A stretch of 64,000 nucleotides of DNA from Myxococcota bacterium (GTDB taxonomy: Bacteria; Myxococcota_A; UBA9160; UBA6930): the NCBI GenBank assembly GCA_036560185.1, contig DATBRS010000247.1, positions 6,049 through 70,048 of the forward strand, written 5' to 3'. The notes beneath the pieces are model-generated. The model made no database searches, was not told the origin of the DNA, and was given only the letters and a program-made list of their open reading frames with translations. How positions within the stretch are numbered: the stretch's first letter is position 1; every line of letters starts with the position of its first letter. Position numbers and translations under genes: made by a program. This document shows, one piece after another, positions 38,104-58,801 of the stretch.

Positions 38104-38433
38104 CTAGGCCGCTCGGGCCGAAGCGACGCGCGGCGCCGAGCGCAGAGCGCGCGCCTCGCGATGGATCAGATACAGCAGCGGCCCGGCGACGCCGAGCGCC
38201 AGCGTGATCGCGACGTAGGGCGCAAAGGGCGTGCGCGTCGCGCGCGAATCGCCGCGCATCCAGAGCAAGACGAGGCAGAGCGAGATCGTCAGGTCGACGC
38301 CCGCGAGCACGGTCGAGGTGCTGCGCAGCATCTCGACGTAGAAGCCGAGCAGGCCTGCGGTCGCGAGCACGTACGCGGTGAGGGCGAGGAACGGCAGCAG
38401 CACGGCGCTGTACACGAGTTGGCGAGTGGACAT
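38104..38433 (-). CDS. Small integral membrane protein (109 aa, DUF2834-like)
   Basis: ATG at 38433 with an AGGAGAA SD. It has three hydrophobic segments (VYSAVLLPFLALTAYVLATAGLLGF; LAGVDLTISLCLVLLWM; YVAITLALGVAGPLLYLI). Confidence 0.55.
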   Translation of the reverse strand: MSTRQLVYSAVLLPFLALTAYVLATAGLLGFYVEMLRSTSTVLAGVDLTISLCLVLLWMRGDSRATRTPFAPYVAITLALGVAGPLLYLIHREARALRSAPRVASARAA

Positions 38434-38590
38434 CGGGTTCTCCTGGGGGCTGCGGGAACTGAAGCGCCAGGTCGATGGGGCCGCGATTCCCCGAGAGGGA
38501 ACGAACGCCACACGGCTCCGAGAGCGCTGCTGCCCGCCCTGCGCCCGGCCCCTCCCCGCGGCGCATGCGTTCCGTATCTTGCGCGGACCC

Positions 38591-39655: not shown

Positions 39656-39667
39656 CGGGCGTCGCCT

Positions 39668-40633: not shown

Positions 40634-40637
40634 ACGA

Positions 40638-41594: not shown

Positions 41595-41633
41595 CTCGCG
41601 TTCTCGCTCGCGTGCGGGGCTCGTTCGTGCGCC

Positions 41634-42581: not shown

Positions 42582-42587
42582 TCCCGG

Positions 42588-43754: not shown

Positions 43755-43781
43755 TCGCTCCTCATCCGCGCGCAGCGTTGC

Positions 43782-44759
43782 GTGCCCATTCGCATCCTCG
43801 AGTCGGGCTCCCAGCGACCGGCGCGTATCATAGGCCGGTACGCTCTGGAGGTCGCCGCGCTGTTCCGGCTCGCCCACGTTTCCGATCTGCACGCTACGCG
43901 CGTGCGCTTCTCCGGCCTCGCTGAGCTGAACGCGAAGCGCGCGCTCGGCTGGCTCTCCTGGCAGGTGCGGCGGCGCCGCAAGTACCGGCCCGAGATCGCG
44001 GCGCGCGTGATCGACGATTTGGTCGCGAGCGCCCCCGATCACGTCGCGGTGACCGGCGATCTCACGCACATGGGCCTCGACGCGGAAGTCGCGGAAGCCG
44101 CGGCGTGGCTCGCGCGGCTCGGCCCGCCCGAGCGCGTGACGCTCGTCCCCGGAAATCACGACGCGTATGGCGCGCGGCTCGATCACGCCTGCATGGACGC
44201 ATGGCGCCCCTATTTAAATTCAGACCAGGGCGCGCGGGGCGCGACGCGAGCGGCGGCGCCCTTCCCCAGCCTGCGCGTTCGCGGTCCGGTGGCGCTCGTG
44301 GGCCTCAGCTCCGCCGTGCCCACGCCGGTGCACCTCGCGACCGGGCGCGTCGGCGAGGCGCAGCTCGCCGCGTTGCCCGACCTGCTGCGCGACCTCGCTG
44401 CGCGCAAGCTCTGCCGCGTCGTGCTCGTCCACCACCCGCCGACGCGCGCGCACGTCTCGTGGCGGCGGCGCCTCGAAGACGGCCCCGCGCTGTGCCGGAT
44501 CCTCGCGCGCGCCGGCGCCGAGCTGGTGCTGCACGGGCACACCCATCGCGCCGCGCGCGACGCGATCGCGAGCGCGCATGGGCCGATCCCGGTGCTCGGC
44601 GTGCCCGCGACGTCCTCCGCCGTGCGCGCTCGGCCGGGCGCTTATCAGGTGTTCTCGATCGCAGAGCGCGGCGCAGGCGGCTACGCGATCTCGCGCGAGC
44701 TGCGCGAGATCAGCGGCGTATCAGGCCCGCTGCGCTCGCTCGGCAGCGAATCGCTCTAG
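43782..44759 (+). CDS. Calcineurin-like metallophosphoesterase
   Basis: Motifs are HVSDLH, VTGDLTH, PGNHD, LVHHPP and VLHGHTH. The start is uncertain. GTG at 43782 is the first canonical start, but a CTG at 43860 sits 8 nt after a GGAGG and would give the typical N-terminus (M)FRLAHVSDLH. Confidence 0.75.
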   Translation: MPIRILESGSQRPARIIGRYALEVAALFRLAHVSDLHATRVRFSGLAELNAKRALGWLSWQVRRRRKYRPEIAARVIDDLVASAPDHVAVTGDLTHMGLDAEVAEAAAWLARLGPPERVTLVPGNHDAYGARLDHACMDAWRPYLNSDQGARGATRAAAPFPSLRVRGPVALVGLSSAVPTPVHLATGRVGEAQLAALPDLLRDLAARKLCRVVLVHHPPTRAHVSWRRRLEDGPALCRILARAGAELVLHGHTHRAARDAIASAHGPIPVLGVPATSSAVRARPGAYQVFSIAERGAGGYAISRELREISGVSGPLRSLGSESL

Positions 44760-44761
44760 GG

Positions 44762-45568
44762 CTAGGCCCCGCGTTTCAGCAGCCGCTCGACGAGCGCGAA
44801 ATCCTCGAGCTTGTCGACGTCGATGCCCGCGCGGCCGTCCGCGAGCCGCACGGCGCCGATGCGCGCGCCGCTGGCTCGCGAGATCGCCTCGAGCGCGGCC
44901 TCGAGGGGCAGGCGCCCGGCCATGAAGCGCGCGAGCGTGACCGCGCCGAACACCGCGGCGAGGCGCCAGGGCTCCTTGCGGAAGCCCTCGGCTCTGCGCC
45001 AGAACGCGGCGACGCGCGCGGCGCCGGGCGTGCGCGCCAGGAACAAGTTCGCGCCGGTGAAGCGCTCGCGGCCGAGCCGCAGCCAGGTTCGCTTGTTATG
45101 GGGAGCGACTGCGAGCACCGCCAGGTCGGGCACGAGCGCCACGCACAGGTCGTTCCCGCTCGCGAGCGCGTCGTCGAGGAATGCGCTGACCGTGGCGGCC
45201 GCGAGCAGCGGATGATCGGCGGTCGTCACCAGCACGAGCGCACTCGCGCTGCGCTCGACGAAATCGCGCACGCTGTCCGCGGGCGACGAGCCGCTCGCGT
45301 GCAGCGCGAGCTCGCCGGAGGCGAACGCGGGGCCGAACTCAGGATGGCGCCGCAGCGCCTCGGGGTCGTCGATGCTGATCGTGATCTGCCCGACCGCCGG
45401 CACGGCGCGCAGCGCCTCCAGCACGTACGAGAGCAGCGGCCGCCCATGCATCGGCGCCAGCGCCTTGTGCGTGACCCCCGCCGCGCGCGCGATCGGCTCC
45501 TCGCCGCCGCGCCGGCCGGCGAGCACGAGCGCAGCCACCGTCTCCGTTCGCTTCGGCTTCGTGAGCAC
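44762..45568 (-). CDS. MobA-like (NTP_transf_3) nucleotidyltransferase family protein
   Basis: 268 aa. The N-terminus AALVLAGRRGGEEPIARAAGVTHKALAPMHGRPLLSYVLEAL and the later LVTTADHPLL are typical of this fold. Confidence 0.65.
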   Translation of the reverse strand: MLTKPKRTETVAALVLAGRRGGEEPIARAAGVTHKALAPMHGRPLLSYVLEALRAVPAVGQITISIDDPEALRRHPEFGPAFASGELALHASGSSPADSVRDFVERSASALVLVTTADHPLLAAATVSAFLDDALASGNDLCVALVPDLAVLAVAPHNKRTWLRLGRERFTGANLFLARTPGAARVAAFWRRAEGFRKEPWRLAAVFGAVTLARFMAGRLPLEAALEAISRASGARIGAVRLADGRAGIDVDKLEDFALVERLLKRGA

Positions 45569-45632
45569 GCGCCGCGATTAGAGCACATCTGCCGGAGCCG
45601 GACGGCGCGCGGGCGCGCGCAGCGCCCACGAT

Positions 45633-46931
45633 ATGCTGCCGCGCGCTGCAGGGAGTGGCCGCGTGTCAGCGATTCGTTTCGCGATCTGGATCGACGCGAC
45701 TCCTCCCGAGAGCGCGCTGCGCGTCTTCGGCATGTCGCTCGTCGAGCGGCTGCTCGCCGCCGTCGCACAGCTCGCGGGTGCGAAGAACGCGCGCTTCGCG
45801 CTCGCGAGCGTCGTGGTGGAGCACGCGCCGGCGGCCGCGCCGCGGCTGCGTGCCGATCTCGCGGCGCGCCTCGGCGCGACGCTCGCCGAGGCGCGCGGCA
45901 CGCTTTCCGAGCGCATCGCGCGCGCCGCCGCGCGCGACGCGAACGCCGTGCTGCTCGCGCTGCCAGGCGACGCCATCGTCGACACGCGCGTGCTCGCCGA
46001 GTTGCTGCGCGAAGCGGATAGCGCGATCGCTCTCGCGGACGAGGGTGCACGACGCACGGCGCTGGTGCGCCTCGCGGCGAGCGCGGTGCCGGCGCCGGCG
46101 AGCGCGAACGATCTGCGCGGCCTCGCCGAGGCGCAGCGCGCCGCGGGCACAGCGCGCGTGCTCCCGCTCTCGGCGATTGCGGAGCACATCGCCGACCTGC
46201 GGCGCGATCAGCCGGCCTATGCGTTTCGGCTCGCCGCGAGCGAGGTCGCGTCCACCGAGCGCTGGCTGTTCTGGTCGAACTACAAGGGCTCGACCGACTT
46301 CCTGACGCGCTTCGTCTTCCCACCTTTCGTGTGGGCAGCGGTGCGCCCGCTCGCGCGCCTCGGCGTCCACCCGAATTGGGTGACGGGGCTGGCGGTGCTG
46401 CTGTGCTTCGGTGCGATCCCGCTCTGGGCGCATGGACATTGGGCGCTCGGCTTCGCGGCCGCCTACGGGATGGCGGTGCTCGATTCCGTCGACGGCAAGC
46501 TCGCGCGCCTCACCTTCACCGCCTCGACGCTCGGGAACGTGATGGACCACGGAACCGACATCCTGCATCCGCCGTTCTGGTACGCGGCGTGGGCGTGGGG
46601 TCTGGCCGGTGGACCTCACGGCCCGGTCTACGAGCTCACGCTCTGGATGTTCGGGCTGTACACGCTCGACCGGCTGGTCGCGCCGATCTTCCGCGCGATG
46701 ACGCAGAAGTCGATCCACGGCTACGCGCCGATCGACGTCGCGATGCGCACGTTCATCTCGCGGCGCAACGTCAACCTGCCGGTCTTCACCGTCGCGCTGC
46801 CGCTCGGGCTCGGCGCCGAGGCGATCGTGCTCGTGGTGGCGTGGCAGGCCGCGTGCTTCGTGTTCCACGCGGTGCGCTGCGCGCAGGTGGCGATCAGCCT
46901 CGAGCGCAGCGCGAGCCGGGCGACGCGGTGA
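45633..46931 (+). CDS. Fusion of a degenerate nucleotidyltransferase-like domain to a CDP-alcohol phosphotransferase (copy 2; IPCT/DIPPS-like architecture)
   Basis: Motif LDSVDGKLARLTFTASTLGNVMDHGTDILHPP within TM helices. The N-terminal domain resembles an NTase (ALPGDAIVDTRVLAELL), but the Gly-rich loop reads AIWIDATPPES. The junction ERWLFWSNYKGSTDFLTRFVFPPF matches copy 1 (ERALFDASYKGVTDFITKYAWPPL). An alternative GTG start at 45663 has a better GGGAG SD. Confidence 0.75.
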   Translation: MLPRAAGSGRVSAIRFAIWIDATPPESALRVFGMSLVERLLAAVAQLAGAKNARFALASVVVEHAPAAAPRLRADLAARLGATLAEARGTLSERIARAAARDANAVLLALPGDAIVDTRVLAELLREADSAIALADEGARRTALVRLAASAVPAPASANDLRGLAEAQRAAGTARVLPLSAIAEHIADLRRDQPAYAFRLAASEVASTERWLFWSNYKGSTDFLTRFVFPPFVWAAVRPLARLGVHPNWVTGLAVLLCFGAIPLWAHGHWALGFAAAYGMAVLDSVDGKLARLTFTASTLGNVMDHGTDILHPPFWYAAWAWGLAGGPHGPVYELTLWMFGLYTLDRLVAPIFRAMTQKSIHGYAPIDVAMRTFISRRNVNLPVFTVALPLGLGAEAIVLVVAWQAACFVFHAVRCAQVAISLERSASRATR

Positions 46932-47075
46932 ACGCGCGGCAGCCGCTCGGCGCCGCCGCCGGCGCGCTCGTCTCGCTCGCGATCGCGTGAGGCGCGCTCG
47001 TGACGGCGCGCGGCGGCGCGCCGATCCGCGCGCGGAGGCGGCTACTCTGCGCGCGCGAATCCGCCCGAGGCCGCC

Positions 47076-48239
47076 GTGCGCGTCTGCTTCCTGTTCAACC
47101 ACTACGCCACGCACCAGCTGATGCACGCCGCGCCGTTCGCGTTCGAGCTCTCGCGCCGGCACGCGAAGGCGGAGGTGGTCGTCGCCTGCACGAGCGAGGA
47201 GCAGCTGCACGCGGCGCGGCGCATCGCGGAGCTCTATCCCGGCCAGCGCGCGGAGTTCGTGCGGCTGCGCATGTCGCTGCTCGACCGCGTCGCGGCGGCA
47301 GCGCTCGCAGGCTTCACCTTCCTCGCCAAGAAGCGAATGCTCGCCAGCAACCTCGACTTCTTCCGCGGCTTCGACGCCGTCGTCGCGCCCGAGCGCACGA
47401 TGCTGAAGCTGCGCACGAAGCACGGCCTGGCGCACGTGAAGCTGATCAACGCGCGGCACGGTCAGGGCGATCGCGAGGGCAGCTTCGACGCGCGCACGCG
47501 CGAGCTCGATCTCACCCTCGTGGGCGGCCGGAAGTACATCGAGCGCTTCGCCGAACACGAGATCCTGCGCGAGGGCCACACCGCGATCGTCGGCTACCCG
47601 AAGTTCGAGGTGTGCGACGCGCTGCCGGCGCCGCCGCGCTTCTTCGAAAACGACCGGCCGGTAGTCGTCTACAACCCGCACTTCGACGCGACGGAATCGT
47701 CCTGGCAGACCCAGGGCCGCGCGGTGCTCGCTTGGTTCGCAGCGCAGGCCGAGTACAACCTGATCTTCGCGCCGCACGTCGTGCTGTTCGCGCGCGCCTG
47801 GCGCCATCGCGCGCGCGTCCCGCGGCGAATTCGCGAGGCGCGCAACATCTTCGTGGACACCGGCAGCGAGGCGAGCGTCGACATGACCTACACGCGCGCC
47901 GCGGACATCTATCTCGGCGACGCGAGCAGCCAGGTCTACGAGTTCATCGCGAAGCCGCGGCCCTGCGTGTTCATCGACGCCCAGCGCGCGCGCGCGGCCG
48001 CGCCCGCGAAGTACGCGCACTGGCGCTTCGGGCCCGTGATCGAACGCGCCGATCAGCTGGGCGAAGCGCTCGCGCGTGCGCGGCGCGACTTCCCCGCGTA
48101 CCTCGCCGCGCAGCGCGATGCGTTCGCCTACACCTTCTCCACCGACGCAGCGCGCACCCCGGGACAGCGCGGCGCCGACGCGATCTACGAGTTCCTCGAG
48201 AAGGGCCGCATCGTGTCGGAGTGCTACCGCGCGGGCTGA
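47076..48239 (+). CDS. GT-B-fold transferase, TagB/TagF (CDP-glycerol glycerophosphotransferase)-like
   Basis: 387 aa. VVYNPHFD... and AADIYLGDASSQVYEFIAKPRPCVFID parallel the YAPT.../LITDYSSvxFDF blocks of the Glyphos_transf family. This is a tentative assignment. Confidence 0.4.
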   Translation: MRVCFLFNHYATHQLMHAAPFAFELSRRHAKAEVVVACTSEEQLHAARRIAELYPGQRAEFVRLRMSLLDRVAAAALAGFTFLAKKRMLASNLDFFRGFDAVVAPERTMLKLRTKHGLAHVKLINARHGQGDREGSFDARTRELDLTLVGGRKYIERFAEHEILREGHTAIVGYPKFEVCDALPAPPRFFENDRPVVVYNPHFDATESSWQTQGRAVLAWFAAQAEYNLIFAPHVVLFARAWRHRARVPRRIREARNIFVDTGSEASVDMTYTRAADIYLGDASSQVYEFIAKPRPCVFIDAQRARAAAPAKYAHWRFGPVIERADQLGEALARARRDFPAYLAAQRDAFAYTFSTDAARTPGQRGADAIYEFLEKGRIVSECYRAG

Positions 48240-49012
48240 CGCGCCGGCGCATCTTCGATCGGCGCGGCGCGGCTCTTGCGGCGGCTCTCGAAGAGCCGAT
48301 GCGCCCACTCGGCATCGCCCGCGACCAGGCGATTCGCCTCCGCGATGGCGCGCCGCAGGATCAGCATGCGACGGCGCCACAGCATGCGCGGCACGCTGCG
48401 CGTTGCAGTTGTGCGCGAGAAGCGCTCGTGCCGCAGCGCGCTGAGGCCCGAGGGCGGCAGCCCGAGGTAGGCCTCGACGCGCGCGAGCGAGCGCGCCGGC
48501 TCGGCGATCAGCTCGGAAGATTCGAGCACGAGCTTGTCGCCGTCATGCGCGCGCCAGCCCTCGGCGAAGCGGCGGAGCTCGTCGCTGAGCCCCGTCGCCC
48601 GGCCGCGCTGCTGCCAGCCGCGCTCCGAGAAGCAGAACGCGAACTCGTAGCTCTTGGTGGGCCACGCTCCGGTCTCCTCGCCGCGCCGGTAGGCGGAGAC
48701 GATCTCCTCGGCGTCTCGTAACAAGATCACCTTCGGCACGCGCTGCAGCACCGCTTGGTTCCGCGGCGTCGGCGGGAAGTGGAACTTCGCGAGCCGATCG
48801 CGCGCGGCCAGCACGCCCGCGACGCGCTCGTCGAGCTCGACGAAATCGCGGCGGTGGAACTGCGCGGCGTGCCAGTAGCCCGGCGCGATCGGGCGCCGGA
48901 GCAACACCTCGTCGCGGATGCGGCGCGTATCGACGGACAGGGCATGCGTTGCGGCCAACGTCTCGACGAGCGCGCTGCTCGCGCTCTTCGGGATGGCGAC
49001 GATCAGGCTCAC
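48224..49012 (-). CDS. Sulfotransferase-family protein (PAPS-dependent type)
   Basis: It has a 5'-PSB-like motif IVAIPKSASSAL, a 3'-PB-like motif KVILLRDAEEIVSAYRR, and a C-terminal block LESSELIAEPARSLARVEAYLGLP. The ATG overlaps the upstream NTase stop by 4 nt. Confidence 0.55.
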   Translation of the reverse strand: MSLIVAIPKSASSALVETLAATHALSVDTRRIRDEVLLRRPIAPGYWHAAQFHRRDFVELDERVAGVLAARDRLAKFHFPPTPRNQAVLQRVPKVILLRDAEEIVSAYRRGEETGAWPTKSYEFAFCFSERGWQQRGRATGLSDELRRFAEGWRAHDGDKLVLESSELIAEPARSLARVEAYLGLPPSGLSALRHERFSRTTATRSVPRMLWRRRMLILRRAIAEANRLVAGDAEWAHRLFESRRKSRAAPIEDAPARQPAR

Positions 49013-49779
49013 GCGCCGGGCTCCACCGAGCGCGGCGACTCGCGCGCTCGCGCGCGCGCCGCGAGCCCTTTGCGCACCGCCTCGAGGTCATCGAGCGAAT
49101 CGATCTCTCCCCACCACAGGCCTTCCATCGAGCACGCGCGCACGAGCCCGTGGCGCGCGAGCTCGCCGATCGCGGTGGTGTAGTAGGCGCGCTGCTGGCC
49201 GTAGCGGCGCACGAGCTGCTCGAAGCTCTCGCGGATCGCGACCGCTCCCGAGCCGCGCAGCAGCGTCATGCCGATCGCCTCGCCTTGGCTCTCCGGCGGT
49301 TCGAGATCCTTGCCGATCGCCCTCACCAGCCCGCGCTCCAGGCACACCTTCATGTCGTCGTCGTCGTAGCTCGGCTTCACGTTGACCACGATCGTGACGG
49401 GGCTCGGCGGCGCGGCGAAGAGCCGCTCGACGACCGCGCCCTCGAACAGCGTGTCGCCGTTCAGGAGCACGCACTCGCCGTCGAAATCGCGGCTCGCGAG
49501 CCAGGCCGTGATCAGGTTGTCGGCCTGATCGAAGAACGGGTTGTATCGGACCCGCAGTGCGAGGCCGGGCACCGGCGCAGCGGCCGCGAAGCGCTCGACC
49601 TTCTCGATGCCGTAGCCCGCCATCACCACGGCTTCGCGCACACCGTGGGCCGCGAGCTCGCGCAGCTGCACCTCGAGCACCGAGCGGTCGCCGTCGACGG
49701 GCACGAGGCACTTCGGCAGATCCCGCGTCACGGGGAACAGGCGCCGGCCTTGCCCCGCGCTCAGGATGATGGCTCGCAC
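49009..49779 (-). CDS. NTP_transferase-family nucleotidyltransferase (LicC / phospho-alcohol cytidylyltransferase-like)
   Basis: GTG at 49779 with a GGAGAG SD. It has the Gly-rich loop RAIILSAGQGRRLFPVTRDLPKCLVPV, LLNGDTLF, and WGEIDSLDDLE at the C-terminus. Confidence 0.75.
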   Translation of the reverse strand: MRAIILSAGQGRRLFPVTRDLPKCLVPVDGDRSVLEVQLRELAAHGVREAVVMAGYGIEKVERFAAAAPVPGLALRVRYNPFFDQADNLITAWLASRDFDGECVLLNGDTLFEGAVVERLFAAPPSPVTIVVNVKPSYDDDDMKVCLERGLVRAIGKDLEPPESQGEAIGMTLLRGSGAVAIRESFEQLVRRYGQQRAYYTTAIGELARHGLVRACSMEGLWWGEIDSLDDLEAVRKGLAARARARESPRSVEPGA

Positions 49780-49877
49780 CGTGGTGGCTCTCCGTTCCGC
49801 GCGTTCCCGCTGCGCCGAGGCTGGCGCGCATTGTCGTCTACCGGACCGATTCAACAAGGTGGGTAAGCTGCGCGCGC

Positions 49878-52136
49878 GTGGCGGCTGGAAGCGAATCGAA
49901 AGGCGAGGCGGCGCGAGCCGCGAGAGCGCTCACCAGCGGGCATCGGCCGCTGGGCTGGACGCTGTTCGGCTATATCGCCCGCGAAGCGGTGCTGCCCAGC
50001 CTGCTCGCGCTCGGCGGCCTCTCGCTCGCGGCGCTCACGAAGAGCCTGCTCGGCCTCTCCGATCTGCTCGTGAACCGCGGCCTCAGCGGCGCCGACACGG
50101 CGGCGTTCGTCGGTTTCGAGATCGTGGTGCTCGCCGCGCGCATCCTGCCGTTCGCGGTGCTGCTCGGCGCGCTGATCGCGCTCGGGCGCCTCGCCGCAGA
50201 CAAGGAGCTGCTCGCGCTCGAGAGCTGCGGCATCTCGCCGGGCCGCCTGATCGGGCCGGTGTTGGCGGTCGGCTGCCTCGGCACGTTGGGCGGGCTCGCG
50301 CTCTCGCTGCAGCTCGTGCCGGCGACGCTCGCCGCGCGCGAGCAGCTGCTGATCCGCAGCACGCTCGAGCAGCCGGGATCGGTGCTGCACCCTGGCGTGG
50401 TCCAGAAGTTCAAGGAGCGGCGCCTCTCGGCGCTCGACGCGTCGAGCCGCGGCGACGACCTGCGCGGCGTGATGCTCCACGCCGAGGATCTCGACGAGAC
50501 CTTCTTCTCGGAGACCGCGACGCTGCGCGTGCCGCAGCCGGGCACGATCGTCGTGACGATGCGCGACGGCATGATCGTCACGAACGCCGGCAAGCGCGCG
50601 CAGCTCGTGCGCTTCAAGCTGTTCCGCATCGAGCTCGAGGGCAAGGAATCGGTCGGCAAGCCACAGGGCGACGAAGGCCGCTTCGCCAGCACGCCCACGC
50701 GCGAGCTCTGGTCGGCCGTGCCGCAGAACGCGGAGGACGAGCGCGCGATTCGCAGCGAGCTCGCGCGGCGTTTCTCGATGCCGTTCGCCGCGCTCGCGCT
50801 GACCTGGCTCGCGGTGCCGCTCGCGCTGACCCTCGGCAGCGGCACGCGCGGCGGCGGCGGCGTGGTCGGCCTCGGCGTGACGGTCGTGTACTACGGCCTG
50901 CTGCAGGCGTCGAACGGCTTGCTCGAGTTCCCCGACGTGCCGGTCGCGCTGGCTGCGTGGTTTCCCAACCTCGCGGCGGCGATCGGCGGCGGCGTGCTGA
51001 TGATTCGCCGCTTCGTGCTGCTGCGCGAGCAGCAGCCGCGAGCGCGCGCCGCCGACGCGCGCGACGTGAAGTCGCAGCGCGCGCGGGGCGGCCGGCGCTG
51101 GGCGCTCACACGCTACGTCGCGCGCCGCTATCTCGGGAGCGCGCTGCTCGGCATCGGCGTGCTGCTGCTCGCGTATCTGCTCGTCGACGTGCTGGAGAAG
51201 CTCGAGCAGTTCGCCGAGCACGGCGCCGCGTTCTCCGAGGTGCTGCGCTTCTACGCCGCGCGGCTGCCGCTGCTCGTCTCGCGCGTATTGCCGATGGGCC
51301 TGCTCGTCGCCGCCGCAATGATCGTCAGCGCGATGTCGAGCGAGGGCGAGCTCGTCGGCATGGAGGCCTGCGGCATCCGCGCCGGGCGCGGGCTGGTGCC
51401 CGTGATCGTGCTCGCCGCCCTCGCGATGCCGCCGTATTTCGCGCTGCTCGACCGCGTGCTGCCGACGACCAATGCGCTCGCCGACCGCCTGAAGGAACGC
51501 GAGATCAAGGACCGGGCGCCGGACGGCTGGGAAGAAGTCTGGTCGCACACGGCGCGGATGGCGCTGCACGTCGGCGCGCTGAACGCCGCAGCGGGCATGG
51601 CGCGCGACCTCACGCTCTACGAGCTCGGCCCGACCGGCCTGCCGGAGCGGCGGCTCGACGCGCGCGTCGCGAGCGCGCTCGGCCACGGCGAGTGGCGGCT
51701 GACCGACGCGAAGCTGACGCTGATCTCGCGCGCGGGTCTGATCGAGGCGCCGGCCGGCGAGACGCGCGCCATCCCCGAGATCGAGTCGTCGCTCAGCGAC
51801 CCGATGCACCTCGACATCGCCGACTTGGAGAAGCACATCCGCGAGGCGAAGCAGGGCGGCTACAGCTCGATGGCGTACGAGGTCGACTTGCAGTCCCGCT
51901 TGTCGCAGCCGCTCCAGTGCCTGCTGCTGCCGTGGCTCGGCCTGCTGATCGCGCTCGGTGTGCGCAAGCCGGCCCCGAGTCTGCTCTGGGCGATCGCGAT
52001 CGGCGTCGGCTTCATCCTCGTGACGGGAGTGAGCGTTGCCCTCGGCTACGGCGGCACGATTCCGCCGATCGCGGCGGGCTGGCTGCCCTCGGGGGCCGTC
52101 GGGCTGGCGGCATTTGTGCTGCAGCTTCGCCGCTGA
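49878..52136 (+). CDS. LptF/LptG (YjgP/YjgQ) permease family, both halves fused in one 752-aa polypeptide
   Basis: The first half reads FGYIAREAVLPSLLALGGLSLAALT...ILPFAVLLGALIALGRLAADKELLALESCGISPGRL. The second half restarts at about aa 400 with LTRYVARRYLGSALLGIGVLLLAYLLVD...VLPMGLLVAAAMIVSAMSSEGELVGMEACGIRAGR. There is no stop between them. Confidence 0.8.
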   Translation: MAAGSESKGEAARAARALTSGHRPLGWTLFGYIAREAVLPSLLALGGLSLAALTKSLLGLSDLLVNRGLSGADTAAFVGFEIVVLAARILPFAVLLGALIALGRLAADKELLALESCGISPGRLIGPVLAVGCLGTLGGLALSLQLVPATLAAREQLLIRSTLEQPGSVLHPGVVQKFKERRLSALDASSRGDDLRGVMLHAEDLDETFFSETATLRVPQPGTIVVTMRDGMIVTNAGKRAQLVRFKLFRIELEGKESVGKPQGDEGRFASTPTRELWSAVPQNAEDERAIRSELARRFSMPFAALALTWLAVPLALTLGSGTRGGGGVVGLGVTVVYYGLLQASNGLLEFPDVPVALAAWFPNLAAAIGGGVLMIRRFVLLREQQPRARAADARDVKSQRARGGRRWALTRYVARRYLGSALLGIGVLLLAYLLVDVLEKLEQFAEHGAAFSEVLRFYAARLPLLVSRVLPMGLLVAAAMIVSAMSSEGELVGMEACGIRAGRGLVPVIVLAALAMPPYFALLDRVLPTTNALADRLKEREIKDRAPDGWEEVWSHTARMALHVGALNAAAGMARDLTLYELGPTGLPERRLDARVASALGHGEWRLTDAKLTLISRAGLIEAPAGETRAIPEIESSLSDPMHLDIADLEKHIREAKQGGYSSMAYEVDLQSRLSQPLQCLLLPWLGLLIALGVRKPAPSLLWAIAIGVGFILVTGVSVALGYGGTIPPIAAGWLPSGAVGLAAFVLQLRR

Positions 52137-52214: not shown

Positions 52215-53021
52215 ATGTTCGGCCGCCGTTCGGACGGAACGCTCGTCCGCAATCTGCCGAAGCTGCGGCGGTTCATGCCGTTCGTGTCACCGCGACGCAA
52301 CGAGTCGGCGTTCTACTACTCCCACGAGATCGAAGTCGACGCCGCCCTGCGCTTCCTCGAGGAGCAGAACAAGACGCGGCCCCCGGGCAGGCAAATCACG
52401 CTGTTCCACCTGTACTTGCGAGCGGTGGCGCTCGGCCTGCGCGACAACGAGGAGGTGAACCGCTTCACCGCGGGCGGCCGTCTGTACCAGCGAAACGGAG
52501 TCTTCCTGACCTTCAGCGCCCTGCGCGAGCTGCAGAAGGGCTCCCATCTGATCACCGTGAAGCGCGCCTTCCCGGCGGGCGAGACGCTTCCCGGAATGGT
52601 AGACCGCGTGCTCGACTCGCTGGTGAGCCGGCGCAGCGGGACCAAGACCCAAGCCGACAAGGAGGTCGACCTCGCGCTCTACCTGCCAACGCCGCTGATT
52701 CGCGGCGTGATGAAGCTTCTCCGCTGGGCGGATTCGCTCGGCGTTTTGCCCAAGTCGATGATCGACGACGACCCGCTGTTCACCTCGTTGTTCGTGGCGA
52801 ACCTCGGATCGCTGGGCATGGAGTCCGGTTACCACCACCTGTGGGAATACGGCACATGCTCGGGCTTCTGCGTCATGGGACGCATCCGAACGCGGCCGGA
52901 CGGCAGCCGCTACGTCGTTTGTAATTACACCTGGGACGAAAGGGTTGCCGACGGCCTCGCCACGAGCTTCGCGCTCGGCGGCTGGAAGGAGCGCGTCGAG
53001 AACCCGGAGAAACTCATCTGA
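52215..53021 (+). CDS. 2-oxoacid-dehydrogenase E2 catalytic-domain-like (CAT-fold) acyltransferase-like protein; no lipoyl domain, canonical His replaced
   Basis: ATG at 52215 with a GGGAGAC SD. The C-terminal block NYTWDERVADGLATSFALGGWKERVENPEKLI matches the E2 signature sfDHRviDGaxaaxFlxxlkxxlExPxxLl, except that DHR reads DER. The stop overlaps the spt N-terminal coding region. Confidence 0.6.
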   Translation: MFGRRSDGTLVRNLPKLRRFMPFVSPRRNESAFYYSHEIEVDAALRFLEEQNKTRPPGRQITLFHLYLRAVALGLRDNEEVNRFTAGGRLYQRNGVFLTFSALRELQKGSHLITVKRAFPAGETLPGMVDRVLDSLVSRRSGTKTQADKEVDLALYLPTPLIRGVMKLLRWADSLGVLPKSMIDDDPLFTSLFVANLGSLGMESGYHHLWEYGTCSGFCVMGRIRTRPDGSRYVVCNYTWDERVADGLATSFALGGWKERVENPEKLI

Positions 53022-53056
53022 CGGATCTATTCGACAAAGTCGCCAGTTACGACCGA

Positions 53057-54205
53057 GTGAGAACCCTGCGAGACCATGCGATCTACCCGTACTACCGGGT
53101 CGTCTCGTCGGGCCAAGACCCGGTCGTCCTCATGAACGGACGCCCAGTCGTGATGCTGGGCTCGAACAACTACCTCGGGCTATCGAGCCATCCCGAGGTG
53201 AAGGCCGCCGCCGCCGCGGCGCTCGACAAATACGGGACCGGCTGCGCCGGGTCGCGGCTGCTGAACGGCACCCTCGACATCCACGTGGAGCTCGAGGATC
53301 GCCTCGCGCGCTTCATGCGGCGCGAGGCCGTGATCACGTTCGCGACCGGCTATCAGGCGAACGTCGGCGCGCTCTCGACGCTGCTCGGGCGGCACGACGA
53401 GGTGTTCCTCGACAACCTCGATCACGCCTCCCTGCTCGACGGCATCCGGCTCGGCTTCGCGAAGGACCGCAAGTTCCGGCACAACGACATCGCGGACCTC
53501 GAGAAGAAGCTGAGCGCGGCGCCGAAGGACTCGGGCAAGCTGATCGTCGTCGACGGCGTCTACTCGATGGAAGGAGACCTCGGCGACCTGCCCGGAGTGT
53601 GCGCCGCGGCCAAGAAGTACGGCGCGCGCGTGATGGTCGACGAGGCCCACGGCATCGGCGTGATGGGCACGAACGGCCGCGGCGCGTGCGAGCACTTCGG
53701 CGTCGAGTCCTCCGTCGACCTCGTGATGGGGACCTTCTCGAAGTCGCTGGCGTCCGTCGGCGGGTTCATCGCGGGGAGCCGCTTGGTGGTCGACTACATC
53801 AAGCACACCGCGCGCTCGGCGATCTTCTCCGCCGCGCCCGCTCCGCCGGTGATCGGCGCGGTGATCAAGGCGCTCGACATCCTCGAGCGCGAGCCGGAGC
53901 GGCGCAAAGCGCTCTGGGAGAACACCGACTACATGAACCGCGCGCTGACGTCGCTGGGCTTCGACATCGGCAAGCCTCAGTCGCCGGTGATCCCGATCAT
54001 GATCGGGCCCGACGAGATCGCGTACGAGATGGCGGTGCGGCTGCAGGACGAGGGCGTGTTCGCGAACCCCGTCGTGTCGCCGGCGGTGCCCCAAGGCAAC
54101 GCGATGATCCGCACCTCGTACATGGCGACGCACACGCGCGAGCACCTCGACACCGCGCTCGATGCGCTCGCCAGCGTCGGCCGTCAGCTCGGCGTGATTC
54201 GCTAG
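53057..54205 (+). CDS. spt: Serine palmitoyltransferase-like alpha-oxoamine synthase (PLP-dependent)
   Basis: It contains GTGCAGSRLLNGT (an SPT-type loop), RKFRHND, VDGVYSMEGD, VDEAHGIG, and the PLP-lysine block GTFSKSLASVGGF. Overall it is collinear with Sphingomonas SPT as I recall it. The conserved N-terminal segment TDLFDKVASYDR lies upstream of the first canonical start, so the true start may be CTG at 53018. Confidence 0.8.
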   Translation: MRTLRDHAIYPYYRVVSSGQDPVVLMNGRPVVMLGSNNYLGLSSHPEVKAAAAAALDKYGTGCAGSRLLNGTLDIHVELEDRLARFMRREAVITFATGYQANVGALSTLLGRHDEVFLDNLDHASLLDGIRLGFAKDRKFRHNDIADLEKKLSAAPKDSGKLIVVDGVYSMEGDLGDLPGVCAAAKKYGARVMVDEAHGIGVMGTNGRGACEHFGVESSVDLVMGTFSKSLASVGGFIAGSRLVVDYIKHTARSAIFSAAPAPPVIGAVIKALDILEREPERRKALWENTDYMNRALTSLGFDIGKPQSPVIPIMIGPDEIAYEMAVRLQDEGVFANPVVSPAVPQGNAMIRTSYMATHTREHLDTALDALASVGRQLGVIR

Positions 54206-54283: not shown

Positions 54284-55084
54284 GTGAGCGCGCGCGCCGT
54301 CCTCGTCACGGGCGCGTCGTCAGGCATCGGCGCCGCGGCGGCGGCGTTGCTCGCCGCGCGCGGCTTCCGCGTCTACGGCGCGAGCCGGAGCGCGCGCAGC
54401 GAGCGCGACGGCATGCGCTGGCTCGCGCTCGACGTGCGCGAGCCCGCCTCGGTAGAGCGCGCCGTCGCTCAGATCGTCGAGCGCGAGGGCGCGCTGTACG
54501 GCGCGGTCTGCAACGCCGGCATCGGCATCTTCGGCAGCGTCGAAGAGACGCCGATGGAGCGCGCCCGCGCGCAGTTCGAGACGAACGTCTTCGGCGTGCT
54601 GCACACGCTGCGCGCGGTGCTGCCGCCGATGCGCACGGCGCGCGCCGGCCGCATCGCGATCGTCGGCTCGCTCGCCGGCCGCGCGCCGATTCCGTTTCAG
54701 GCGCACTACTCCGCAACCAAGGGCGCCGTCGACGCGCTCGCTCTCTCGCTGCACAACGAGGTGCATGCGTTCGGCATCCACGTCGCGCTGATCGAGCCGG
54801 GCGACATCAACACGGGCTTCAACGACGCCACCGATTGGGGCGGCACCGCCGCGGCGAGCGCCTACGGCGCGGCAATCGTGAACGCGGAGCGCGTGATCCG
54901 CGAGTCGCTGCCGAGAGCGCCCGGGCCCGAAGTCGTGGCGCGCGCGATCGCGCACGCGCTCGAGGCTCGGCGGCCGCGCGTGCGCTACCCGGTCGGGCCC
55001 GATTCGAAGCTCGTGCCGCTCGGCAAGCGTCTGCTTCCCGAGCGCGCGGTGCTCGCGTTGATCCGCGACCACTTCGAGATGTGA
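54284..55084 (+). CDS. Classical SDR oxidoreductase (candidate 3-keto-sphingoid reductase by context)
   Basis: GTG start. It has TGASSGIG, NAG, and YSATKGAVDAL (YxxxK). It lies immediately downstream of the spt-like gene. Confidence 0.8.
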   Translation: MSARAVLVTGASSGIGAAAAALLAARGFRVYGASRSARSERDGMRWLALDVREPASVERAVAQIVEREGALYGAVCNAGIGIFGSVEETPMERARAQFETNVFGVLHTLRAVLPPMRTARAGRIAIVGSLAGRAPIPFQAHYSATKGAVDALALSLHNEVHAFGIHVALIEPGDINTGFNDATDWGGTAAASAYGAAIVNAERVIRESLPRAPGPEVVARAIAHALEARRPRVRYPVGPDSKLVPLGKRLLPERAVLALIRDHFEM

Positions 55085-55103: not shown

Positions 55104-56393
55104 TCACGCCTCGCGGCGCAGGATCTTCTGCTTCTGCTGCTCGGTGAAGCGCAGCAGCCGCGCCATGTACTCGAGGCGCGCGTAATCCCGTCCCACGTGA
55201 TGGATCGTGTCGAAGGGATCGTCCTCGCCGAGCATCTCGCCGAGGCGCGGCGAGTTCCGGTGCAGCAGCTGCGGATCGACGCGCTTCGGCTCGAGGCTGC
55301 GCAGGATCCCGCGGTTGAAGTGCCAGTGCAGCGTCACGCGATCGCCGGGCTCGCTGCGATCGCCCTGCCAGTGCCAGAGGCCGTGCGTGAAGAACACGAC
55401 CGAGCCTTTGGGCATCTCGATCGGAACGCCGGGCGGATGCGCCTCGCCGGGCCGTGGCGAGCGCCGCAGGCGATGGCTGCCGGGAATCACCCAAGTCGGG
55501 CCGGACTCGACGCGCCAATCCTCGAGGGCCCACACGCCGACTCCCGTCAGCGCGAACTCCGGATGCGGCTCGGGCACGAGCGCGTAGTCGGTGTGGATCG
55601 GGATCGCGGTCTTGCCGGGGCCCTTGCGAATCGCGCTGAGCGAGCCGATCACGGCGCCGCGGCCGAGCGAGGCGTCGATCAGCGTGAGCAGCAGCGGGTG
55701 CTGCGCGAGCCGCTCGAACTCGCGGCCGTGGTAGAGCATCCACTGCAGCTGCGTTCCCGTTCCCCCTAATTGCTGGCTGCGATCGCTGCCGTGGGTGAGC
55801 AGCGCGCGCAGCGTCGCCGCCCGCAGCTCGTCCGCGAACTCGGGCGAGATCGCGCGCTCGAGCACCGCGTAGCCCTGCTCCTCCATGTCGCGAATCTTCT
55901 GCGCCACGCCCTGGCGCGCGGCGCGGTGCGCCAGATCGGGGTTCTCGACGGTGCGCCGCGCCATGTGGTCGTGCAGCATCGCGACCAGCTCGGCCGCTTG
56001 CGGGTCCGCGAATTGGCCGCGCGCGCGAACCGCGCCGGCGCCGAAGATCGCCGCGATCTCGCGCATCAGTGCGTCCATTGCGCCCGGCGCGAACACTCCC
56101 ACGAACTGCGCGGCCGTGAGCGCGGCCTGATAGTCGCCTTCGACCACGACGTCCGCGCGCTCGTCGAAGCCGCGCCGCAGCTCGATCTTCTCGCCGTCGT
56201 AGCGCGCGCTCCACGCGGCGACGTCGCCCGCCAGCTTCAAGTGCGGCGGCGCGTCGGTGAAGCGCTCGCTCAGCGAGAACGCGCGGCCCGCGAGCCGCTC
56301 CCTACGCGCCGCGACCTCGCGCACCAAGAACTCGCGCGCCTCCTCGAGCCAGGCGTCGGAGAGGAACTCGCAGTGATGCGGGAGCGTGATCAC
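55104..56393 (-). CDS. Phytanoyl-CoA dioxygenase (PhyH)-family Fe(II)/2-oxoglutarate oxygenase with an N-terminal SCP2-like domain
   Basis: GTG at 56393 with an AGGAAGGG SD. The C-terminal part reads IPIHTDY...WVIPGSHRL...GSVVFFTHGLWHWQG (the HxD...H facial triad pattern). The N-terminal ~150 aa (ADVVVEGDYQAALTAAQF...) look SCP2-like, tentatively. Confidence 0.7.
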   Translation of the reverse strand: MITLPHHCEFLSDAWLEEAREFLVREVAARRERLAGRAFSLSERFTDAPPHLKLAGDVAAWSARYDGEKIELRRGFDERADVVVEGDYQAALTAAQFVGVFAPGAMDALMREIAAIFGAGAVRARGQFADPQAAELVAMLHDHMARRTVENPDLAHRAARQGVAQKIRDMEEQGYAVLERAISPEFADELRAATLRALLTHGSDRSQQLGGTGTQLQWMLYHGREFERLAQHPLLLTLIDASLGRGAVIGSLSAIRKGPGKTAIPIHTDYALVPEPHPEFALTGVGVWALEDWRVESGPTWVIPGSHRLRRSPRPGEAHPPGVPIEMPKGSVVFFTHGLWHWQGDRSEPGDRVTLHWHFNRGILRSLEPKRVDPQLLHRNSPRLGEMLGEDDPFDTIHHVGRDYARLEYMARLLRFTEQQKQKILRREA

Positions 56394-56419
56394 TTGTGCC
56401 GCCCTTCCTGCCGCCCATG

Positions 56420-58801
56420 CTACTCGGCGTCCCACGCATAGCGGAGCTGAACGCCCCACGTGCGCGGCGGGGCGTACGTCGAGATCGTGCTGCCGCTGGT
56501 CGCGTTCGGGGCGTGGTTCGTCACGTAGTCCACGTCGCCGATGTTCTCGACGAAGGCCTGAAACGTCACGCCCGCGAGCCGGTCCTCGGGCAGGTTCCAG
56601 ATCAGGCGCAGATTCCCGATGTTGTACGGCGCTTGGCGCCCGAAGTCGTTGTTGAACACGGTGTGGAACTGCTCGGACGTGTACGCGTACTCGCCGCGGA
56701 ACGTGACGTCGCCCGCGCTCCCGGTCCCGAGCGTGTACTGACCCGCGAGCGTGAACTTCCACTCCGGCGCCCGCAGCAGCGCGTTGCCCCTGAGATCCTG
56801 CGGACCCAGCCCAGGGAAGATCGGGTCGACGTCCGCGTATTCCGTGAAGCGCGCATGGAGGATCGAAAGCGACGACTCGATGCGCAGCGGCTCGAGCGGG
56901 ACCCAGAGCGCCTCGACCTCGACTCCGTAGGTCTCGGCGGTCGCCGCGTTCGAGACGATCGCCGCGTTGTTCACGAATTTGCGAACCTGCAGATCCGTGT
57001 AGTCATTGAAGAACGTCGACACGTTGACCTGAAGCGTGTTCTCGAAGAGCTGGGTCTTCACGCCCGCCTCGTACGCGTTCACGTACTCGGGGTCGTAGGT
57101 GTTGTCACAGCTCCCCACGTTGTAGCCGCCCGCTTTGAAGCCGCGGGTGTACGTGGCGTACAGCAGCGTGCTCTCCGCGACGTCCATGTCGACCCCGAGC
57201 TTTCCGGTCGGCGAGCTCCACTCCTCCGTCGAGCGCTGGTCGCGGCAGCCGGCCGGAACGGGCGAGAGGTTGAGCACTTGAGAGTGCACGTCGACCTTCT
57301 GGTCCTTCGTCCAGCGGAAGCCGCCTGTCAGGCGGACGGCCTCCGTCACATGGAACGTCTGCTGGGTGAAGAGCGCCCACGAGGTCAAGTCCTGATCGAG
57401 GCTGAACTCGAGGAACGGCACCGGGCTCGGCGTCCCGTCGAGCTTCACGCCGGTGACCGGATTCGCGAAGGGCAGCAGTGCGAGGCTGCCGGGCGGCAGC
57501 GGGGGGCCGCCTCCGAAGATTCCGAAGATCGCCTCATAGGTCGCCTGCAGCGCAGGCAGCGTGTACCGGTACTCCTCGAAGATGTGCGAGTCGTAGTAGA
57601 AGAAGCCGAAGATCCAATCGAGTCGCTCGTCGAACGCGCTACCGCTGACGTCGATCTCCTGCGACCACTCCTCGTTCGACTGCTCGTAGTCGCCCACGAG
57701 CAACTGGATCGGGATGCCGTCGTTGTTGAATGGGTCGAGATCCTGGTCGAGGTCGAGGTAGGACGAGATCCACTTGACGGCAATGTCGTCCGTCGCGTTC
57801 CAGCTCACGGTCGCGTTCACGTCCCAGTTGTCGCGGTAGTAGTTCTGGTCTCCCTCGTAGTTGACCTTGCGCGGATTCCCGGTCGGGAAGCCAGGCGGCG
57901 ACAGTGTCAATCCGAAGACCTGCGTGCAGGTGAGCGTGGGATCGCACACGCCTGGGAAGTTGAGGATGCCGCCCGGATTGCTGCCGCTGATGAACAGCGG
58001 GGCGACGGGCGTGTCCGCGGTCTTGATGAACGGCGCGCCGCCGACCTCGCTGCGTAGCCAGTTGAAGCGGAGCGCGACCTCGAGGTCCTCCGTCGGCGTG
58101 AGGAGCGCCGCGAGCTTCGCTTGCCGATAGCGCGCGTCGTCTTCCTCGTTGCCGGTGTTCGTGTTCTTCGTGTACCCGCCTCGCGAGTCGTACGAGAAGC
58201 CACCGCGCAGCGCGAGGATGCCATCGATCAGCGGCACGTCGCCGAACGCCTCCGCGCGCCAGCGGCTGTAGTCGCCGTAGAGCGTGCTCACGTCCAAGCT
58301 GGGCCTCTCGCCCGGCAGCTTCGTGATCACGTTCAGGCTGCCGCCGGTGGAGTTGCGCCCGTACAAGGTGCCCTGCGGCCCGCGCAGCACCTCGACCCGC
58401 TCGGCGTCGAAGAACAGCGCCGAGGAAGAGACCAAGCCACCGCGGTAGACACCGTCCTGGTGCAGCGCGACGCCGGGCTCGGCGTCGATCGTGGAGATGT
58501 CGACGCCGATGCCACGCATCGTGATCTGTGCCATGTCGGCGATCTCGCCGTACACGAGCGCCGGCGCCACGAACTGGATGTCGTTGAAGTCCTCGAGGCC
58601 CTGTTCCTCGATCGCCTCGCTCGTGATCGCGGTGACGGCGATTGGCGTGTCCTGCAGGTTCGTCTCGCGCTTCTCCGCCGTGATCGTAATCTCTTCGATC
58701 CCGCCGCGATCCGGCGGCGGCGCAGGCGCGGCCTCCTGCGCGGCGCTGGCCCCCGCCAGCGCGACGGCCGCGGAGAGAGAAAAGGGAAGGAACTGGCGCA
58801 T
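56420..58801 (-). CDS. TonB-dependent outer-membrane receptor
   Basis: ATG at 58801 gives the signal peptide MRQFLPFSLSAAVALAGASAAQE. The plug region reads IEEITITAEKRETNLQDTPIAVTAI...VEVLRGPQGTLYGRNSTGG. A long beta-barrel follows. Confidence 0.85.
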   Translation of the reverse strand: MRQFLPFSLSAAVALAGASAAQEAAPAPPPDRGGIEEITITAEKRETNLQDTPIAVTAITSEAIEEQGLEDFNDIQFVAPALVYGEIADMAQITMRGIGVDISTIDAEPGVALHQDGVYRGGLVSSSALFFDAERVEVLRGPQGTLYGRNSTGGSLNVITKLPGERPSLDVSTLYGDYSRWRAEAFGDVPLIDGILALRGGFSYDSRGGYTKNTNTGNEEDDARYRQAKLAALLTPTEDLEVALRFNWLRSEVGGAPFIKTADTPVAPLFISGSNPGGILNFPGVCDPTLTCTQVFGLTLSPPGFPTGNPRKVNYEGDQNYYRDNWDVNATVSWNATDDIAVKWISSYLDLDQDLDPFNNDGIPIQLLVGDYEQSNEEWSQEIDVSGSAFDERLDWIFGFFYYDSHIFEEYRYTLPALQATYEAIFGIFGGGPPLPPGSLALLPFANPVTGVKLDGTPSPVPFLEFSLDQDLTSWALFTQQTFHVTEAVRLTGGFRWTKDQKVDVHSQVLNLSPVPAGCRDQRSTEEWSSPTGKLGVDMDVAESTLLYATYTRGFKAGGYNVGSCDNTYDPEYVNAYEAGVKTQLFENTLQVNVSTFFNDYTDLQVRKFVNNAAIVSNAATAETYGVEVEALWVPLEPLRIESSLSILHARFTEYADVDPIFPGLGPQDLRGNALLRAPEWKFTLAGQYTLGTGSAGDVTFRGEYAYTSEQFHTVFNNDFGRQAPYNIGNLRLIWNLPEDRLAGVTFQAFVENIGDVDYVTNHAPNATSGSTISTYAPPRTWGVQLRYAWDAE

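Follow-up and report, generated by a model that had tools for sequence, protein, structure and literature searches.

We describe E2L, a stand-alone E2/CAT-fold acyltransferase-like protein (CAT, chloramphenicol acetyltransferase) encoded at 52215..53021 (+) in a 64,000-nucleotide stretch of DNA from a Myxococcota bacterium (contig DATBRS010000247.1; the whole stretch is hereafter called the window), immediately upstream of a gene for a serine palmitoyltransferase (SPT)-like enzyme. With a probability that we put at about 0.5, E2L would N-acylate a long-chain base and would then be a ceramide synthase unrelated both to the Lag1/TLC ceramide synthases (CerS) and to the bacterial ceramide synthase bCerS (YghO/CCNA_01212). 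This reading draws on a rebuilt active site, on the placement of divergent E2L relatives among sphingolipid genes and on a search for bCerS at the same loci. What appears to be new here, judged from sequence comparison, is an E2/CAT-superfamily member with a rewired active site and a proposed new role in the pathway.

Fold and active site of E2L

The E2L open reading frame (ORF) starts with ATG, encodes 268 aa and has a third-position GC content (GC3) of 0.87 within a window of 71% GC; a Shine-Dalgarno-like hexamer, GGGAGA, can be read 5 nt 5′ of the start. Its sole Pfam match is PF00198, at 28.1 bits against a gathering cut-off of 23 and over residues 31–84 only. Neither a Biotin_lipoyl nor an E3_binding domain gave a Pfam match, and the protein length equals that of one catalytic domain. 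A PDB search with the single E2L sequence returned only noise, and alignments to solved chains needed a family profile. The AlphaFold2 model, built on an alignment of 25 sequences, is a globular alpha/beta domain (pLDDT 85.2, pTM 0.86), and all 50 Foldseek matches listed against the PDB are E2 catalytic cores or their relative, the E3-binding protein (E 2.6e-14 to 7e-11, TM 0.6–0.8, identity 10–18%). Because the model is confident and every listed match is of the E2 type, the modelled fold can be assigned securely to E2, whose core fold is that of CAT. Homologs fall into 892 clusters at 90% identity (E ≤ 1e-3) and 2069 clusters at 50% identity; strict conservation over these clusters, together with the Pfam threshold and the Foldseek E-values, rules out chance. 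A first-pass annotation of the window, made from the DNA letters, had described E2L as devoid of lipoyl and subunit-binding domains and had called for a comparison with PF00198. The domain content bears out the former, and the latter gives the match above cut-off, with which AlphaFold2 and Foldseek agree.

The predicted catalytic centre departs from that of E2 at several positions. The C terminus of the family profile (ysyDERveDGlyaaitlaaikerlenPekl) pairs with that of several solved E2 chains (tyDHRiiDGreavlflrkikaavenP), and the profile also aligns with sfDHRVIDG of E. coli AceF. Because DER is thereby aligned with DHR, the motif DERVADG (D241–G247; 52935..52955, +) stands at the place of the E2 DHRxxDG motif, and Glu242 (codon 52938–52940, +) occupies the position of the catalytic His, confirming a replacement that the first reading of the DNA had already proposed. 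In the same profile, vANlG aligns with VSNFG of M. tuberculosis E2b (PDB 6zzn), which puts Ala195 (52797..52799, +; FVANLG in E2L) in place of the E2 oxyanion Ser/Thr, the residue by which E2 stabilises the tetrahedral intermediate. A family-specific HHxxExG motif, HHLWEYG in E2L (H207–G213; 52833..52853, +), lies ~35 residues N-terminal of the DER motif, in the loop after the strand bearing the Ser-equivalent residue, and aligns with the ...GVP-VINHP loop of 6zzn. In E2, the loop following the Ser-bearing strand lines the channel.

Conservation was counted over the 150 best representatives of the 50%-identity clusters. D241 is conserved in 134/134 and R243 in 133/134, and the residue aligned with Glu242 is E in 115, D in 13 and another residue in 6 of the 134 aligned sequences, never His. 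H207 and H208 are each conserved in 141/142 and G213 in 139/141, the HH pair being better conserved family-wide than E242; E211 is E in 112, D in 14 and N in 12 representatives, and position 195 is variable (A98/T27/S14). All context-specific relatives compared keep HHL[YW]E[YH]G and DER, which answers the earlier question of whether Glu is retained in relatives at sphingolipid loci. Of the earlier suggestion that Glu or the nearby histidines might be catalytic, the second half fares better: the HH pair is the best-conserved candidate element, whereas Glu is not.

The site thus appears remodelled yet strongly constrained rather than decaying, and with D241, R243, H207, H208 and E242 (E or D in 128/134) all under strong constraint, E2L does not resemble a decayed pseudo-enzyme. 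The replacement of both the catalytic His and the Ser, and the fact that E2 cores are oligomeric scaffolds, would suit a catalytically inactive E2L that serves SPT and other sphingolipid enzymes as a scaffold, a regulator or a partner binding lipid or acyl-CoA. We regard this as improbable: the former active-site residues are near-invariant over the 2069 50%-identity clusters and a new HH pair has been added, a pattern typical of catalysis or specific ligand binding and not of a relaxed pseudo-enzyme.

E2L is not a true E2. It has in common with E2 cores (PF00198; PDB 3mae, 6zzn, 1c4t) the fold, a colinear C-terminal D-x-R-x-x-D-G ... E-x-P motif with its helix, and colinear N-x-G strand and P-x-x-N-R/a segments, but four defining E2 features were looked for and found absent. 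The catalytic His and Ser/Thr of E2 are Glu and Ala in the window protein, which has the extra invariant HHxxExG loop; the lipoyl and peripheral subunit-binding (PSBD/E3-binding) domains and the E1/E3 neighbours of E2 are both missing; and where E2 belongs to 2-oxoacid metabolism, the context of E2L is sphingolipid. No AceE or AceF homologs were detected in the window or in loci L001–L169, LpdA-like matches occur in 3 loci only, and the annotated contexts contain no E1 or lipoyl Pfam families flanking E2L (heterodimeric E1 types were checked through these Pfam lists only). The first-pass annotation had held that the linkage to spt would be accidental if relatives carried the normal DHR motif within 2-oxoacid dehydrogenase operons; we found neither DHR in the relatives aligned nor AceE/AceF-type neighbours at the loci examined. 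Database annotations of E2L relatives nevertheless read 'hypothetical' or '2-oxo acid dehydrogenase subunit E2'.

Other members of the superfamily offer partial parallels. The E3-binding protein (protein X) of eukaryotic pyruvate dehydrogenase, represented among the Foldseek matches by PDB 6h60, likewise has an E2-like core without the catalytic His, but it keeps its lipoyl and E3-binding domains and co-assembles with a true E2, whereas E2L stands alone, has a strictly conserved replacement motif and shows no pyruvate dehydrogenase context. The CAT-type HHxxxDG enzymes (chloramphenicol acetyltransferase, WS/DGAT, PapA5 and the condensation domains of non-ribosomal peptide synthetases) have the superfamily fold in common with E2L, use acyl-CoA or acyl-carrier donors and O- or N-acylate lipophilic acceptors. 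At the position of their HHxxxDG motif E2L has DERxxDG, and its HH pair lies ~35 residues earlier, in a different loop.

Genomic contexts of E2L

In the window, the E2L stop codon (TGA) overlaps the spt start codon (CTG) in the tetranucleotide CTGA (53018..53021, +), and the SPT frame stays open through the E2L stop, encoding the conserved N terminus TDLFDKVASYDR. This NTGA junction (N = C, G or T) is kept in the window and six related loci, L001–L006, the overlapping codon being CTG in the window, L003, L004 and L006, TTG in L002 and L005, and GTG in L001. The ORF listing had called spt from GTG 53057, giving 382 aa and dropping the conserved N-terminal segment, and the NCBI record of the identical SPT protein (P0274) also has 382 aa, the length expected from that GTG. 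We place the start at 53018 because the junction is conserved, because an independent gene call in L081 puts the SPT start 4 nt inside E2L, and because most SPT database homologs are called at 395 aa. The initial observation that the E2L stop lies within the region encoding the SPT N terminus is thereby sharpened to a 4-nt overlap, whose conservation suggests translational coupling. Such overlaps are frequent for complex subunits and in this respect favor an inactive partner of SPT.

The gene read from CTG encodes an SPT-like alpha-oxoamine synthase (AONS) of 395 aa (53018..54205, +) that is 38.6% identical to E. coli BL21 Spt. Its best NCBIfam match is NF047600, SPT (CFB type), at 534.5 bits, which is below the cut-off of 640 and exceeds the scores of the KBL, BioF and HemA models. 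It is followed by a short-chain dehydrogenase/reductase (SDR; 54284..55084, +; adh_short, 136 bits) resembling the 3-ketodihydrosphingosine reductase KdsR; the Bacteroides KdsR model NF049977 scores 209 bits, below its cut-off of 400, and the best matches are to generic SDR models. The SDR is syntenic in L001, L004–L006 and L081. By its predicted gene content, the window is a sphingolipid locus, combining LptFG-E2L-SPT-SDR with head-group genes.

Every organism-named E2L member belongs to Myxococcota or 'Deltaproteobacteria', including Polyangia, Kofleriaceae, Minicystis and Myxococcaceae. Neighborhoods of the closest relatives were compared at 80 genome loci, with SPT scored within 6 kb. The arrangement LptFG-E2L-SPT(-SDR) occurs in only six of them, those with an E2L at least 76% identical to that of the window; at the remaining 74, where E2L is at most 63% identical, no SPT lies within 6 kb and the recurrent neighbors are a small GNAT, TetR, DnaJ/MerR and a long-chain acyl-CoA ligase. 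The coupling to spt emphasized by the first-pass annotation is therefore real in the window but confined to one narrow clade. E2L was also sought beside the next-closest SPTs (65–68% identity) and not found there. These SPTs (L083–L085; SPT at 10001–11185) lie in a conserved MMPL-MlaC-MlaA-SPT order in other Myxococcota, which supports a putative MmpL/Mla-type route of sphingolipid transport separate from the one through LptFG in the window clade; ~300–500 nt without a called gene are present just 5′ of SPT. One metagenome-assembled genome (MAG) has the unlinked SPT of L083 together with a general-clade E2L (L012). Given these next-closest SPTs, this MAG and the 74 unlinked loci, the spt linkage taken alone would resemble a lineage-specific accident. 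Another MAG carries both a general-clade E2L (L063) and an spt-linked one (L006), and their co-residence fits a dedicated paralog for the spt-linked copy.

Divergent E2L subfamilies, only 36–48% identical to the window protein, extend the sphingolipid association. The context-specific E2Ls, 36–58% identical among themselves, lie beside long-chain-base synthases or ceramide-using enzymes in at least five gene arrangements. A metagenome scan seeded with the subfamily of P0127 (locus L088) returned 80 loci. P0127 itself, 39% identical to the window E2L, is encoded in an operon of polyketide synthase (PKS)-AONS, FA_hydroxylase, E2L and PAP2_3, in which start and stop codons overlap and the PKS (2084 aa) ends in a C-terminal alpha-oxoamine synthase domain. 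The complete version, at 1368–11907 of L172, comprises a CerR-like NAD-dependent epimerase/dehydratase, PKS(KS-AT-ACP-KR-DH)-AONS, FA_hydroxylase, E2L and PAP2_3. This arrangement is found in L172, L090 and, in part, L088, and L118 has a partial set of epimerase, PKS-AONS and E2L. L172, L088, L090 and L118 appear, from their gene content, to be compact clusters for PKS-derived sphingolipid-like lipids. With their PKS-AONS long-chain-base synthases they resemble the Pseudomonas SgaAB PKS/AOS clusters, an analogous PKS-derived route to which the L172 type adds acylation and head-group steps. PKS/AOS pairs are known to make sphinganines (PMC12134224).

Further arrangements vary the same theme. 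Locus L114 (2079–8235) carries, in order, a MacB-type permease, a GT2/GT21-like glycosyltransferase, an epimerase, AONS and E2L, possibly a glycosphingolipid locus whose exporter is of the MacB and not of the Lpt type; GT21 is Pfam's ceramide glucosyltransferase family. An AONS lies directly upstream of E2L in L100 and L103, and a PKS-AONS or stand-alone AONS is immediately 5′ of E2L in L090, L100, L103, L114 and L118, while in L166 SPT follows E2L directly. On the downstream side, PAP2_3, a family that includes sphingomyelin and inositol phosphorylceramide (IPC) synthases, is directly 3′ of E2L in 13 of the 52 metagenome loci that extend 0.9 kb or more downstream. The two are fused in P0177 (PAP2_3::E2L), the PAP2 part of which weakly matches a phosphoinositol dihydroceramide synthase model. 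In L173 (10001–11674; Minicystis sp. MAG), a gene of the PF05875 alkaline ceramidase family, which to our knowledge is rarely noted in bacteria, begins 60 nt after E2L. PAP2_3, GT21 and ceramidase enzymes all act on ceramide. E2L thus recurs between a long-chain-base synthase and a head-group transferase that uses ceramide, its neighbors either overlapping it by 4 nt or lying a few to a few tens of nt away, and this operon slot fits the N-acylation step.

These contexts also bear on two alternatives. An inactive partner of SPT would not account for the many members that lack an adjacent SPT and lie beside PAP2_3 or ceramidase genes, or alone, and it would leave the clusters without any N-acyltransferase; comparative genomics thus weakens the inactive-partner proposal of the first-pass annotation without removing it as a rival. 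A second possibility, which we hold to be very unlikely, is that the spt linkage is incidental and that E2L is a general myxobacterial lipid or fatty-acid protein residing in lipid-rich genome regions. The 74 loci without SPT, with their GNAT, TetR, DnaJ/MerR and acyl-CoA ligase neighbors, would agree with it, as would the contexts foreign to sphingolipids in L082 and L175. Such a protein would hardly be found, however, in direct adjacency (often with overlapping or near-abutting codons) to several rare sphingolipid-type families, for which chance is very unlikely, or in several distinct architectures spanning 36–48% identity, and the MAG holding both L063 and L006 copies also points to a dedicated paralog.

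E2L as a candidate ceramide synthase

YghO of E. coli BL21 is the homolog of Caulobacter CC_1154/bCerS (PMC9386255). YghO itself (L171 14283–15425, −) matches no Pfam-A family at E ≤ 1e-3, so that Pfam annotation cannot detect bacterial ceramide synthases, and we discarded it as a bCerS detector. The search instead used YghO as its one query and covered the window and the E2L neighborhoods rather than whole genomes. Within the window and the E2L loci searched, tblastn (E ≤ 1e-3) gave no match, and phmmer at maximum sensitivity against six-frame ORFs gave only a marginal one in L035 (E = 0.021). Counterparts were found in that search for BL21 Spt, the epimerase (CerR) and LptF2, and YghO went undetected even where CerR-like epimerases and SPT or AONS are present. 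Since YghO finds no match while Spt, CerR and LptF2 do, the clusters hold Spt or AONS and a CerR- or KdsR-like reductase with E2L at the place expected for bCerS, a pattern that fits non-orthologous displacement of bCerS by E2L. Replacement of bCerS and CerR by non-homologous proteins has been raised as a possibility for orphan-Spt lineages (PMC11334938).

Other candidates for a bCerS analogue were considered and rejected. The small GNAT upstream of general-clade E2Ls is a generic GNAT of ~214 aa that matches no NCBIfam model, does not resemble the FeeM domain of the fusion protein P0256 (below) and lacks a homolog in the window. Two conserved-looking window ORFs of high GC3 (0.91–0.92), at 39668–40633 (−) and 41634–42581 (−), the latter with a signal-peptide-like N terminus, show no Pfam, NCBIfam or YghO similarity and were dismissed as hidden bCerS genes; the former also has no PDB match, and a by-eye guess that it is Tam41-like found no support. 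E2L is the sole acyltransferase-fold gene found across 38–57 kb.

Compared with bCerS (Caulobacter CCNA_01212/CC_1154; BL21 YghO), E2L would catalyze the same reaction, N-acylation of the SPT product, and keeps similar genomic company, namely spt, a CerR-like epimerase or reductase and LptF/G paralogs, but the two have no detectable sequence similarity and belong to different fold families. The sphingolipid loci of Caulobacter crescentus and E. coli BL21 comprise spt, acpR, aasR, cerR, bcerS and lptF2/G2. The window resembles them in that spt adjoins LptFG, a reductase and head-group genes; it differs in having no acyl carrier protein (ACP), acyl-ACP synthetase or bCerS, in the fusion of LptF with LptG, and in a reductase of the KdsR-like SDR type. 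Of the components missing relative to these loci, bCerS is one, and E2L sits in the acyltransferase slot. Lag1/TLC ceramide synthases, for their part, are polytopic membrane proteins, whereas E2L, in which no TLC/Lag1 domain was found among Pfam matches, is predicted to be a soluble acyltransferase.

Reactions in the window can be proposed on this basis. SPT would condense serine with an acyl-thioester to 3-ketosphinganine, which the KdsR-like SDR would reduce before or after acylation, and E2L would move a second acyl chain from acyl-CoA (or acyl-ACP) onto the C2 amine. E2/CAT enzymes are trimers with a long channel at each subunit interface, which the CoA thioester enters at one end and a long aliphatic acceptor at the other; this geometry would suit a sphingoid base, and by analogy with E2 and CAT the transfer may take place in the channel between subunits of an E2L trimer. 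With the canonical His and Ser gone (Glu242, Ala195), H207 and H208 on the adjacent channel loop are the candidates to supply the general base. Glu242 could be the carboxylate partner of the HH base or the base itself, giving an inverted His-carboxylate dyad. The head group would be built by the products of the kinase, cytidylyltransferase, CDP-alcohol transferase and glycerophosphotransferase genes, and the fused LptFG would export the finished sphingolipid. The N-acyltransferase role, already entertained in the first-pass annotation, thus gains substantial comparative-genomic support from the arrangements described and from the lack of a YghO homolog nearby; the function itself, like the donor, acceptor, order of steps, oligomeric state and catalytic residues, is what we infer. 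The fuller claim, that E2L constitutes a third independent class of ceramide synthase in which His became Glu and the base moved to the HH loop, and that it replaces bCerS in the SPT- and PKS/AONS-based pathways of Myxococcota, would fall just short of even odds.

E2L could also perform a different transfer within the sphingolipid pathway. Its relatives are fused not only to PAP2_3 but, in every other case, to lipid enzymes: P0256 (L087 8001–11081; 1026 aa) joins E2L to AMP-binding and FeeM N-acyl amino acid synthase domains, P0136 (773 aa) to WS/DGAT and P0247 (586 aa) to a fatty acid (FA) desaturase. These fusions hint that the family is also active in other acyl-lipid pathways; they could also mean a generic tethering or oligomerization module, in line with an inactive E2L. 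Together with the hydroxylase genes that accompany E2L (FA_hydroxylase in L172, L088 and L090; PhyH in the window), the fusions to WS/DGAT and acyl-activating enzymes would suit O-acylation of ceramide or a hydroxy-fatty acid, yielding acyloxyacyl or 1-O-acyl ceramides, and the CAT and WS/DGAT relatives do O-acylate. Alternatively, the native E2 chemistry of shuttling acyl groups between thiols could serve a thioester exchange, from acyl-CoA to a carrier thiol, that feeds SPT; unlike the E. coli BL21 locus, the window has no ACP or acyl-ACP synthetase beside SPT. Feeding by E2L would be unnecessary in the PKS-AONS clusters, however, because the acyl chain there arrives on the PKS's own ACP, and yet these clusters keep E2L. 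The commonest E2L pairing or fusion is moreover with the ceramide-acting PAP2_3 and no SPT nearby, and the minimal clusters hold no other candidate for the obligatory N-acylation. We therefore consider a role in these other transfers unlikely.

Several observations weigh against N-acylation of a long-chain base by E2L. The spt synteny of the window clade is limited to closely related genomes, whose SPTs are 80–92% identical, and no sphingolipid gene lies within 5 kb at 72 of the 80 window-like genome loci or at 59 of the 80 second-set loci. Since most members are thus not beside sphingolipid genes and some, as in L082 and L175, occur in unrelated contexts without a sphingolipid tie, the family may have a broader role within lipids. 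The window protein has neither the canonical catalytic His nor the canonical Ser, and the role given here to HH and Glu is one that we infer from conservation and alignment. The SPT and SDR assignments fall under the NCBIfam equivalog cut-offs. The absence of bCerS, finally, refers to gene neighborhoods and one query sequence, and known producers do not always have bCerS in a cluster with spt (PMC11334938).

The wider locus and its implications

Immediately upstream of E2L lies a fused LptF-LptG permease of 752 aa (49878..52136, +; PF03739 in two stretches, 367 bits), syntenic in L001–L006 and L081. By analogy with LptF2/G2 at the sphingolipid loci of E. coli BL21 and of Caulobacter, where these paralogs export sphingolipids, it is probably a component of a sphingolipid exporter. 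Myxococci are said to have a single lptFG (bioRxiv 10.64898/2026.04.12.717747, also the source for Caulobacter), and the window clade could depart from this rule, or its only LptFG could be the one used from inside a sphingolipid operon. Further upstream, a block of lipid head-group and modification genes identified by Pfam and NCBIfam matches (38378..49857) encodes an FA desaturase, a DAGK-like lipid kinase, two CDP-alcohol phosphatidyltransferase-like proteins, each with an N-terminal extension of 240–330 aa, two nucleotidyltransferases, a Glyphos_transf (CDP-glycerol glycerophosphotransferase-like) protein, a sulfotransferase-like protein and two unannotated ORFs. A similar head-group block lies upstream in L081, and the predicted functions suggest a complex phospho-, glycerophospho- or sulfo-sphingolipid.

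On the other side, a convergent ORF (55104..56762, −; putative start) encodes a PhyH (phytanoyl-CoA dioxygenase-type) protein whose domain is confined to the C-terminal half (PF05721, 70.6 bits, residues 293–464), with ~290 unmatched N-terminal residues. It is partly conserved in L004–L006, and its product may be a sphingolipid, fatty-acyl or other lipid hydroxylase. A scan of 49.5–55.4 kb for promoters and terminators found none of the former, and its single terminator-like site compares with 2.0 expected.

Current accounts of how bacteria make ceramide invoke a single trio, Spt, bCerS and CerR. Our full-text literature searches found no paper tying a PF00198-like protein to ceramide or sphingolipid synthesis, and the bacterial ceramide-synthase literature found names bCerS only. 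Metagenomic surveys, meanwhile, report many Spt-like genes without bCerS nearby (PMC11334938). If the proposed function is correct, E2L would be a candidate for the step that is missing in a large and ecologically abundant phylum, and ceramide synthase would have a third origin, independent of the other two. E2L would also serve as a marker gene predicting sphingolipid producers and PKS-derived sphingolipid clusters. The catalytic His is the defining feature of the CAT/E2 superfamily, and a family that conserves Glu in its place and has a new HH pair would illustrate how a fold can stay fixed while its active site is rebuilt.

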